From: a virus
Lineage: Duplodnaviria > Heunggongvirae > Uroviricota > Caudoviricetes
Virus record (IMG/VR): IMGVR_UViG_2657244940_000019
DNA: 9,677 bases
Reading direction: 5' to 3' (one strand)
The notes below the pieces were generated by a model. The model was not told the DNA's origin. It saw only the letters and a list, made by a program, of their open reading frames with translations, and searched no databases. A program made the position numbers and the translations under genes. Below are positions 5,389 through 9,677 of the stretch, in pieces; the stretch's first letter is position 1, and every line of letters begins with the position of its first letter.

Positions 5389-6702
<1,314 letters not shown>

Positions 6703-6721
6703 GTCTGACTTTATCTGATTT

Positions 6722-6752
6722 AAAAATGCCAGCCTTCGGGCTGGCATTTTTT
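6722..6752. terminator. Bidirectional rho-independent terminator shared by convergent eno and ygcG: AAAAATGCCAGCC-TTCG-GGCTGGCATTTTTT
   Basis: 9-bp GC-rich stem, 4-nt loop, A-tract upstream and T-tract downstream, lying between the eno stop (6700-6702) and the ygcG stop (6762-6764). Confidence 0.85.
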
Positions 6753-6761
6753 ATGGTTGAG

Positions 6762-7634
6762 TTACCAGCGACCGGACGCGCCGCCACCGCCAGAAGAACC
6801 GCCCCCGCCGCTAAATCCGCCGCCACTTGAGCCACCACCGGAACCGCTGTTGTCTGAATGATAACTTCTACCAGATGCTTTTTTCTGAAGTACACATAAA
6901 CAGGTAAAGACCATAATGGTGGTGAAAGTAAAAAAGAAGAAAAATACAGCAATGGAAAAAGTTTTATCGGAGAACAGGAATAAATCTAAAAGATAGATTG
7001 CTGAAATACAGACACTGCTTTTACATGCGCGACAAAAATTACTGCCTTGATGAAAAAACCAGAAAGGGAAGAACATCACTGCAAATACCCAAAAAATAGC
7101 AAAGTAGTAATGATCGCTGGAAGATGCTGATTCACTTTCTGAAGGATTAACCGAATATTGGTGTTGTGAAGTGAGTCGGTTATTCAAAGCGATTATAGCT
7201 AACTCTAATCCCTTAGCTAATTTTTGTTGTTTAAATGCGGGTATCATGTTGCTACGGATGATATCTCCAGCCAGAGCGTCGGTTACCTTTTCTTCCAGCC
7301 CATAACCTACCTGGATGCGGACAGTGCGATCCGACCAGGCAACAATGATCAGTATCCCATCATTACGTTTGGCATCTCCTAAACGCCAATTGTCAAAAAC
7401 CCTTGTAGCATATTGTTCAATGGAATCGTCTCCGGTGGACGGCACTACTAATACAGCGACCTGCGCCCGTGTTTTATGTGTAATATCCTGCAGTTGCTGT
7501 GTCAGTGATTGTTGTTCAGAAGTGCTTAACGTACCAGTAATATCGGTCACCTGTTGGCGCAGTTCCGGCACAGCAATTTGCTGGGCAAGCCCAGGAAGGC
7601 ACCACAAAGTGAATAGAATAAAGATTAAGCGCAT
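6762..7634 (-). CDS. ygcG: TPM-domain membrane protein, YgcG-like (290 aa from ATG 7634; an in-frame TTG at 7646 would give 294 aa)
   Basis: Signal peptide [22 protein letters not shown]-type domain (...[37 protein letters not shown]...), hydrophobic transmembrane segments, and Gly-rich C-terminus ...[25 protein letters not shown]. Position convergent with eno matches K-12 ygcG from memory; exact identity not verified. Confidence 0.8.
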
Positions 7635-7639
7635 TACGA

Positions 7640-8782
7640 TCACCAACGGTCGGATGAACCGCCGCCTCCTGAAGAACCGCCACCACCGCGGAAAGAATTT
7701 CTCGACGAAGAGCGAGAATGAGCATGAGCATTACGATTCCCCATTTTCCTGTTGCTTTTTTCTCCTGACCCCAGCTTAAGATTGCCAGTAAATTTGGCCA
7801 CAATGATCAGCAGAACGATGCCAGCAATGGTTATTGGGCCGATAAAATGATCAATTAACCCAATAATTGTTGAGATGAATGCAATATCTTTATTACTGGC
7901 GAACACCAGGCACCATCCCACAATAATTATCAGCATCACGACAAACAATGAATTTCGTCCTGATTCACGAAATTGCGGAGTCTTCTTTTGTTTTTTCACT
8001 TTAGCGTTTTTATTTTTTGGGGCCAGCATCATAGGAAATACGCGGCACATATTAAAAACTACTGCGAGACGCTGCCAGCAGATTGCTGCGAAAAATAAAC
8101 TAAAACAAACGACCGACACCCGCCGAATGATGACATCGTCCTGAAAGCAGAAAAACCAGACCGTAGGTGTAATCATTGATATCATCCATATGCCAGGTCC
8201 TGGACGGCTGGTAAATCGCCAGAGGACAATGATGGCAACGATCATCAGCACTGTCCAGGCAAGGCATGGCAGCGAAAGTTGCGGATTAGCAAACAGATGA
8301 TTGGCTAAAGCATCCAAAGGGCTAAGGTTCGCTTTGATATGGGTAAACTGTGCGATGCTTTCAATTCCGCCCGTTAATCCAGCAAAGAGATTGTTTTTTT
8401 CGAATTCTGGCTGCATATGGTAACGAACAATTTGCGCAGCTTGTTCCGGCGGCAACATCTGTTCCAGTCCATGTCCAATCTTCATTGACGCCAGCCCTTC
8501 CGGCCAAACGACGAGAATTAAGATACCTTCGCCATATCGCTTCTCTCCAACGGGTTTCCAGTGATATACCCCGTATCTCTGCGAGGCTGCAAGTTTAATG
8601 TTTTTGCCCCCTGTTGTCGGCGTAACCAACACGGCCACCTGGAAGTGGTTTTGCTGCTCGAGAGTCTGTAAAGCACTTTGTTCTTCTGTCGTTAATGTCC
8701 CGGTTAAGTCAGTCACTGAAGGCAATCGTTCAGCGAATACCTGAAAACCGCATAGCATCAGAAGTAAGAGAAAAATACGCAT
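7640..8782 (-). CDS. TPM-domain paralog with expanded polytopic membrane region (380 aa)
   Basis: Signal peptide [20 protein letters not shown]-type core (...[25 protein letters not shown]...), at least four hydrophobic helices separated by a Lys-rich loop ([23 protein letters not shown]), and tail ...[16 protein letters not shown]. Ribosome-binding site AAGGA before ATG 8782; its stop lies 5 nt before the ygcG start. Confidence 0.78.
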
Positions 8783-8796
8783 ATCAATTCCTTTTG

Positions 8797-9443
8797 TTAC
8801 CAGCGCCCGGAAGCGCCACCGCCACCAGATGAACCGCCACCACCGCTAAAATTGTCATTGTCGAATGAAGAGGATGACGATGATGAATAGTGGGAGGAAG
8901 AATTGCTTCTTGTATGGCGTGATGGCTGGTTGGCATCACGCATCGAATCCCGAACCTTTTTGCCGAAGGGGGTAAAAGCGATGGCAACTGCCAGAAACGG
9001 TGTGGCGAAGCAGAGTAATGTTGTGAGTACTCCCCAGCTTCCGCTGAAACCTGCTATAGGTAAAACAAAGGCCAGTACAATGGCTGCGAAGCAAATTACT
9101 CCCAACGTTTTGATATATCCTCTGGCAGAAATAAACGTCAGTATTATCGCCCAGACTAATAAAGCCCACCAACCGCTAAAGGGCAAAGGGTGATCGGTCG
9201 GTGTTATCGTTGCTGAATTATTCCCCGTCAGGCGACTTTCAATATCGTTGATCCCCTTTTGTAAACCACCAGCCAGGTCGCCTTTTTTAAATGCCGGAAT
9301 AATACTGTTGCGAATAATTTTCCCGGACTGTGCATCCGTAATAATACCTTCCAGCCCGTAACCGATTTCAATACGCACGGTATGATCCTGCCAGGCGACT
9401 AACAGTAGAACGCCATCATCACGGTCTTTATCACCCGGTTTCC
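8797..9443 (-). pseudogene. Third TPM-domain paralog, 5'-truncated by IS1 (about 80 N-terminal codons missing, including the signal peptide)
   Basis: The frame is open from the IS1 junction (9443/9444): ...KPGDKDRDDGVLLLVAWQDHTVRIEIGYGLEGIITDAQSGKIIRNSIIPAFKKGDLAGG... aligns with YgcG residues about 88 onward; then membrane helices, a Ser-rich stretch and tail ...[17 protein letters not shown]. The first possible start inside the native part is GTG at 9378. Confidence 0.75.
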
Positions 9444-9677
9444 GGTAATGACTCCAACTTATTGATAGTGTTTTATGTTCAGATAATGCCCGATGACTTT
9501 GTCATGCAGCTCCACCGATTTTGAGAACGACAGCGACTTCCGTCCCAGCCGTGCCAGGTGCTGCCTCAGATTCAGGTTATGCCGCTCAATTCGCTGCGTA
9601 TATCGCTTGCTGATTACGTGCAGCTTTCCCTTCAGGCGGGATTCATACAGCGGCCAGCCATCCGTCATCCATATCAC
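9444..9677 (-). mobile_element. IS1 insertion sequence, 3' portion in inverted orientation (rest of element lies right of the window)
   Basis: 9444-9466 GGTAATGACTCCAACTTATTGAT is the reverse complement of the IS1 terminus seen at 290-312; the following sequence is the reverse complement of window 79-312. Confidence 0.93.
9459..9677 (-). CDS. insB: IS1 transposase InsB, C-terminal fragment (5' end outside window)
   Basis: Minus-strand translation ...[35 protein letters not shown]...HYLNIKHYQ, identical to the left copy; stop at 9461-9459. Confidence 0.9.

Follow-up and report, generated by a model that had tools for sequence, protein, structure and literature searches.

Gene inactivation by IS1 in the IS-expanded genomes of Escherichia and Shigella has a characteristic appearance, with a canonical end of the element, a short target duplication, an interrupted coding sequence and contigs that break at the repeat. 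The target duplication of IS1 is usually 9 bp long, 8 bp being a less usual length, and insertions of the element are classically polar in both orientations, via Rho. Recombination between IS1 copies in such genomes shows itself by flanks that do not match in an assembly spanning the element. Fusion promoters formed by IS1 insertion, with an outward-facing -35-like hexamer upstream of co-oriented genes, are also documented (review PMC9330008, citing Prentki et al. 1986).

The described locus closest in position is yqcG-ygcG of E. coli K-12, found at the same place between queE and eno, where lemA and two TPM paralogs have been lost and ygcG has been kept. The loss there appears to be a deletion, which leaves ygcG directly behind the native promoter region on the queE side. 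As context only, the K-12 spacer equivalent to the queE-lemA spacer of the complete locus carries a strong binding site for the RpoS holoenzyme in genomic SELEX (PMC5493296) and binds phospho-PhoP on its queE side (PMC4974570). At the locus described here, unlike in K-12, it is IS1 and a pseudogene fragment that stand upstream of the surviving paralogs. The locus shares with the known cases of IS1 inactivation the canonical end, the short duplication, the interrupted coding sequence and the contig break at the repeat, and with the known cases of IS1-IS1 recombination the mismatched flanks, seen in one spanning assembly; we find no mechanistic difference to either, the duplication being 8 bp long in this case.

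The window, i.e. the whole stretch of 9,677 nucleotides analysed, is the entire contig CDRA01000096.1 (GCA_000947375.1) in reverse orientation. It is composed of an IS1 end (1-313), a prophage-like stretch (314-1974), mazE, mazF, mazG, pyrG and eno on the plus strand, three genes for TPM proteins on the minus strand, and a further IS1 end from 9444 on. Searched against Rfam, the window was without a match.

Read directly, the plus strand from position 9444 is the right end (IRR) of IS1, GGTAATGACTCC... / GGTAATGACTCCAACTTATTGATAG. The inverted repeats of the element are GGTAATGA / GGTGATGC; the window contains the IRR as GGTAATGACTCCAACTTATTGATAG, and the opposite end, IRL GGTGATGCTGCCAACTTACTGAT, is visible in two other contigs (L003 and L023). 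The part of IS1 included in the window (9444-9677, minus strand) comprises 234 nt up to the contig end, with the IRR adjoining the gene fragment, and is 100% identical to an annotated IS1B copy. Its transposase lies on the minus strand, in the same direction as the TPM genes, and is represented by the 3' end of insB (9459-9677, minus strand, from the ORF list) with the last 72 codons and the TAA stop at 9459-9461. The encoded InsB C-terminus matches positions 154-199 of the 199 of NCBIfam transpos_IS1 and also Pfam DDE_Tnp_IS1. The contig stops inside the element because short-read assemblies break at multicopy repeats; the only assembly which spans the whole 768-bp IS1 (at 8572-9339 of L003) is a 282-kb contig of GCA_010686555.1, where the 3' junction is identical.

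The border between element and gene is sharp. When positions 8600-9677 were compared by megablast to 5,426 complete E. coli genomes, only query positions 1-844 were aligned with IS-free E. coli, so that homology ends exactly at 9443, and the part beyond matched IS1 copies everywhere. The junction of IS1 and the TPM gene itself was absent from all 5,426 complete genomes, and an exact 38-nt junction pattern had no match in the GTDB species-representative genomes. The same 3' junction was found at 100% identity in at least eight independent assemblies or read sets, and it is therefore no accident of assembly.

What remains of the interrupted gene (8797-9443, minus strand) are 647 nt, which begin with the final two bases of codon 83 and run through codons 84-297 to the stop codon, and these are 100% identical over 647 nt to the gene EGX93_RS12875 of strain FDAARGOS_536. 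The missing 5' part of this 297-aa TPM gene amounts to 247 nt (82 codons and 1 nt), the coding region for the signal peptide MRNFIFLMAFFCSSVFA and for the N-terminal half of the TPM domain. While the intact 297-aa protein matches positions 1-123 of the 125 of the Pfam profile TPM_phosphatase (PF04536), the fragment matches only positions 56-123, which places the cut inside the domain. The original prediction, made from the letters alone, had put the IS1 terminus at 9444 and inside the TPM domain of the third paralog counted along the window, and both statements stand. What the fragment still codes for is the C-terminal half of the domain, along with three membrane helices predicted by hydropathy and a Ser/Gly-rich tail; a full TPM domain following an N-terminal signal peptide is absent from it, since profile positions 1-55 and the signal peptide are gone. 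Judged by its sequence, it is a remnant of a member of the TPM/YgcG family, a pseudogene and not a functional member.

The reading frame of the TPM gene remains open for some distance into the element. Beyond the junction codon (9442-9444) the IS1-derived extension (9445-9504, minus strand; translation, ORF list) contributes 19 sense codons preceded by a TGA at 9502-9504, in agreement with the about 20 codons originally predicted. ATG, GTG and TTG are all absent from this extension, and the first candidate start in the truncated frame is a GTG at 9376-9378, preceded 7 nt upstream by AGGA. From here gene callers report a 193-aa ORF (8797-9378, minus strand) that is devoid of the signal peptide and of half of the TPM domain. 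That this could be the natural start of the gene, in which case no truncation would have occurred, is contradicted by the IS-free relatives, in which the 297-aa gene starts 247 nt past the junction. A fusion protein of InsB and the TPM protein was also considered and was rejected, because insB and the TPM gene are in different frames, the insB stop at 9459-9461 being located upstream of the junction.

The intact locus is evident from the IS-free strains CFT073 (L001) and FDAARGOS_536 (L011). Between queE and eno both carry, divergent from queE, the series lemA, TPM (297 aa), TPM (384 aa) and ygcG (290 aa). The divergent queE is separated by 172 bp from lemA (200 aa; Pfam LemA, E 4e-48), which is followed after 13 nt by the 297-aa TPM gene and, after a further 14 nt, by the 384-aa TPM gene; ygcG abuts or overlaps the latter. 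In NCBIfam the TPM proteins matched Psb32 and LemA matched MamQ, in both cases below threshold. In both strains lemA lies directly upstream of the TPM genes, in their orientation and separated from them by minimal spacers, and because lemA precedes the 297-aa gene, the gene broken in the window is the second, and lemA the first, of a predicted four-gene envelope operon. The description of the broken gene as the first of the operon was thus wrong by one gene. A match to the 297-aa TPM gene was found in only 1,452 of the 5,426 complete E. coli genomes.

The only sizeable non-coding stretch upstream of the TPM gene is the 172-bp spacer between queE and lemA, and the operon promoter should be located there. 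As the gap between lemA and the TPM gene measures only 13 nt, the truncated gene was most likely without its own promoter already before the insertion. Of the loss of the signal peptide and of the gene's own promoter, both originally proposed, only the former can be maintained.

The 8 bp preceding the element in the window (9436-9443) read CGGTTTCC on the plus strand and GGAAACCG on the gene strand. In order to find the other side of the insertion, the protein encoded by the 5' fragment was computed beforehand for a simple insertion with duplications of 7-11 bp and either IS1 end, and ten candidates (duplications of 7-10 bp, both IS1 ends and three N-terminal allele variants) were looked up by exact sequence in a collection of 15 billion proteins. 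One of the ten exists, MRNF...FDSWKPGDAANLLI, which corresponds to an 8-bp duplication followed by the left end of IS1, while the other nine submitted products (duplications of 7, 9 and 10 bp, the IRR end and N-terminal variants) are absent from this collection. The existing protein led to three contigs (L023-L025) which contain queE, lemA and the 5' part of the TPM gene, ending in ...GATAGCTGGAAACCG and followed directly by the IRL, GGTGATGCTGCC; read further, ...GATAGCTGGAAACCG is followed by GGTGATGCTGCCAACTTACTGATTTAG. The left end of IS1 thus adjoins GGAAACCG, the same 8 bp as in the window, where the gene strand at the junction shows GGAAACCGGGTGAT following on ...CATTACC. The 8-9 bp duplication that had been expected on the far side of the element is therefore present, as an 8-bp duplication with its two junctions on different contigs and in different samples: the reciprocal contigs come from ERZ27242602, SRR27117395 and SRR25011160, which are other samples than those showing the 3' junction. 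As the window itself ends inside IS1, these contigs are tied to the event in the window by the base-exact agreement of site, duplication and orientation.

Because the same 8 bp are found next to the IRL in the reciprocal contigs, we take the founding event to be a plain insertion of IS1 with an 8-bp target duplication, the IRL pointing toward lemA and insAB co-oriented with the operon, and assign to this reading a probability of roughly 0.85. IS1 would have transposed into codon 83/84 of the second gene of lemA-TPM(297 aa)-TPM(384 aa)-ygcG, duplicating 8 bp and with its transposase genes pointing in the direction of the operon. The window would represent the downstream half of the product, consisting of the right end of IS1, the 3' two-thirds of the gene and the two intact downstream paralogs. 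The interrupted gene would have become a pseudogene devoid of start codon, Sec signal peptide and the first 55 of the 125 TPM positions. Just beyond the newly inserted element, the promoter, lemA and the 5' fragment would still have been intact, as they are in the three reciprocal contigs. The original prediction that the operon promoter was probably gone is on these grounds overstated, since these contigs keep the promoter region, lemA and the 5' fragment beyond IS1 and only one assembly (L003) shows a different locus on the far side.

That assembly deserves attention, as it speaks for a different origin, in which the junction arose in one step through an intramolecular rearrangement mediated by IS1 (replicative inversion or deletion) or through homologous recombination between IS1 copies, a step that would also have removed lemA, the promoter and the 5' portion of the TPM gene. 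In the 282-kb contig the flank on the IRL side, TTGGTCCTA, belongs to the spacer between yjgK and arcA and shows no duplication, so that the TPM fragment is joined, without a matching duplication, to a place which in the IS-free FDAARGOS_536 is about 1.8 Mb away from the TPM locus; moreover, IS1 is known to generate such rearrangements (PMC9330008). Against this, the reciprocal contigs end in the same 8 bp at the left end of IS1 and in the orientation of a simple insertion, which makes a direct rearrangement very improbable. Since the reciprocal junction is the signature of plain transposition, any rearrangement can only have taken place afterwards, and the far flank in the 282-kb contig would imply either a later IS1-IS1 rearrangement (inversion) or a misassembly across a multicopy repeat. 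Following the plain insertion, the element may thus, in at least one related genome, have recombined with another IS1 copy, leaving lemA and the promoter cut off from the 3' half of the operon.

The genomes concerned are dense in IS1, as can be seen from one of the reciprocal contigs (L023), where the segment of 1,986 bp with queE, lemA and the 5' part of the TPM gene is located between two direct IS1 copies (1-233 and 2220-2352); recombination between these would delete the segment. In the window, the second IS1 end (1-313) has its IRR terminus at 313 and insB on the plus strand. The contig thereby has an IS1 right end facing inward on either side, a typical result of the breaking of short-read assemblies in a genome rich in IS1.

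At the other side of the window, the prophage-like block (314-2008), with DUF1391, an S24 repressor, Cro and a YdaT-like gene, is joined at 1975 to the promoter of mazE, 30 nt before the ATG of this gene. At this join relA would be expected, and two sister assemblies with the same IS1/TPM junction (L003 and L004) have relA there. A 71-aa ORF running across the join was found nowhere else in the entire protein collection than on this contig. The join is either a strain-specific rearrangement removing relA from its position or an assembly chimera.

Both paralogs downstream of the broken gene are intact. The spacer following the TPM fragment (8783-8796, minus strand) is 14 nt long and carries AAGGA, the ribosome-binding site of the next gene, which encodes the second TPM paralog (7640-8782, minus strand; 380 aa; Pfam TPM, E 5e-17). 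With respect to the 384-aa form and to all other alleles compared, the 380-aa allele has lost LNQQ, in frame, from within the TPM domain and has an M in place of a T near the C-terminus; the exact allele was found on 17 contigs, none of them from a closed chromosome. These changes fit relaxed constraint on the protein, the numbers being too small for an argument. The third TPM paralog, ygcG (6762-7634, minus strand; 290 aa; Pfam TPM, E 8e-38; alternative upstream starts at 7643 and 7646), encodes a common E. coli allele, found exactly on 908 contigs. All three TPM paralogs of the window share the C-terminal end ...[AS]S[GD]RW.

Transcripts coming from the lemA promoter or from a weak IS1 promoter would have to traverse IS1, and the following about 680 nt, from the insB stop to the next start codon, would depend for their translation on the use of the GTG at 9378. 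Because a transcript has to cross both the element and about 680 nt of pseudogene that is for the most part untranslated, the insertion probably lowers the expression of the 380-aa paralog and of ygcG strongly, through polarity, instead of switching it on. The opposite outcome would be a regulatory rewiring instead of a loss, with read-through from insAB or a hybrid promoter driving the two paralogs without lemA and the first TPM protein. The orientation of the element, which sends insAB transcription into the operon, would agree with this, as would the ribosome-binding site AAGGA of the 380-aa gene, the integrity of both downstream ORFs with ygcG being a widespread allele, and the precedent of the fusion promoters documented in the review quoted above. 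Unlike in those, the flank here is without a suitably spaced -10 hexamer, both by the scan and by direct reading: a consensus scan of 6700-9677 showed no promoter-like site at or near the junction of IS1 and flank, and the best hybrid found by eye consists of a -35-like TTGGAG, 8 nt from the IS1 end, followed at a spacing of 19 nt by GATAAA, in which the final T is missing. Mostly untranslated RNA of about 680 nt would favour Rho termination, the 380-aa allele has its lineage-specific changes, and the locus decays repeatedly in other lineages. For these reasons activation of the downstream paralogs by IS1 is unlikely, and reduced expression is the reading we keep. Promoter and terminator scans of 6700-9677 and of the intact locus gave fewer sites than shuffled controls and none in the queE-lemA spacer, and are uninformative on the native promoter.

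Loss of the operon is not confined to the lineage with this IS1. In other E. coli lineages the 297-aa TPM gene (5689-6582 in L013-L021) has independently acquired nonsense mutations at least three times (Q74*, W83* and W100*), and truncated products (P0018 and P0030) are consistent with +/-1 frame shifts in an A7 tract at codons 53-55. Since the gene has been knocked out independently in these lineages, the 193-aa ORF is called there as well. Strain 100416 (L002, 4117-5282) has an IS1 inside lemA together with an internal stop in the middle paralog of the 384-aa type, and FDAARGOS_536 (L011, 2332-3486) an internal stop in the 384-aa paralog. K-12 (L012, 2558-3584) has, from queE to eno, no more than yqcG (46 aa) and ygcG. 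Its similarity to the four-gene locus breaks off some 35 nt inside lemA and is picked up again some 200 nt inside ygcG, the intervening stretch of about 290 nt being without a match, by which K-12 is recognised as a variant in which the operon has undergone deletion or replacement.

E. coli can plainly do without the operon, which is often found in decay. The series of independent null alleles, comprising the present IS1, the IS1 in lemA, the three nonsense alleles, the A7 frame shifts, the stops in the middle paralog and the K-12 deletion, could also be read as recurrent selection for loss of lemA-TPM-TPM-ygcG across E. coli and Shigella, going beyond merely neutral decay. We consider this improbable; if it were true, carrying these envelope proteins could be a disadvantage in certain niches, where they might for instance be a target of phage or of host defences. 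In a related reading, IS1 would drive the two paralogs that are left, independently of lemA.

Altogether, an IS1 has inserted in an uncharacterised envelope-protein gene of an IS1-rich strain of the Escherichia/Shigella type and has knocked it out, which is an ordinary event. It has all the marks of a textbook IS1 insertion, to which a rearrangement through IS1 seems to have been added later in at least one related genome, and as such is a case of ordinary IS pseudogenisation; the whole would fit the decay and rearrangement of genes by IS elements that are usual in IS1-expanded lineages of this type. For annotation it follows that the ORF of 193 aa at 8797-9378, reported by gene callers as a "TPM domain protein", should be marked as a fragment of a 297-aa gene that has become a pseudogene, and that the operon should be described with lemA as its start. 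The junction, together with the 8-bp duplication, is a clean lineage marker for the IS1-rich clone, and the repeated loss of this uncharacterised envelope operon in E. coli could guide work on the function of LemA and TPM proteins.
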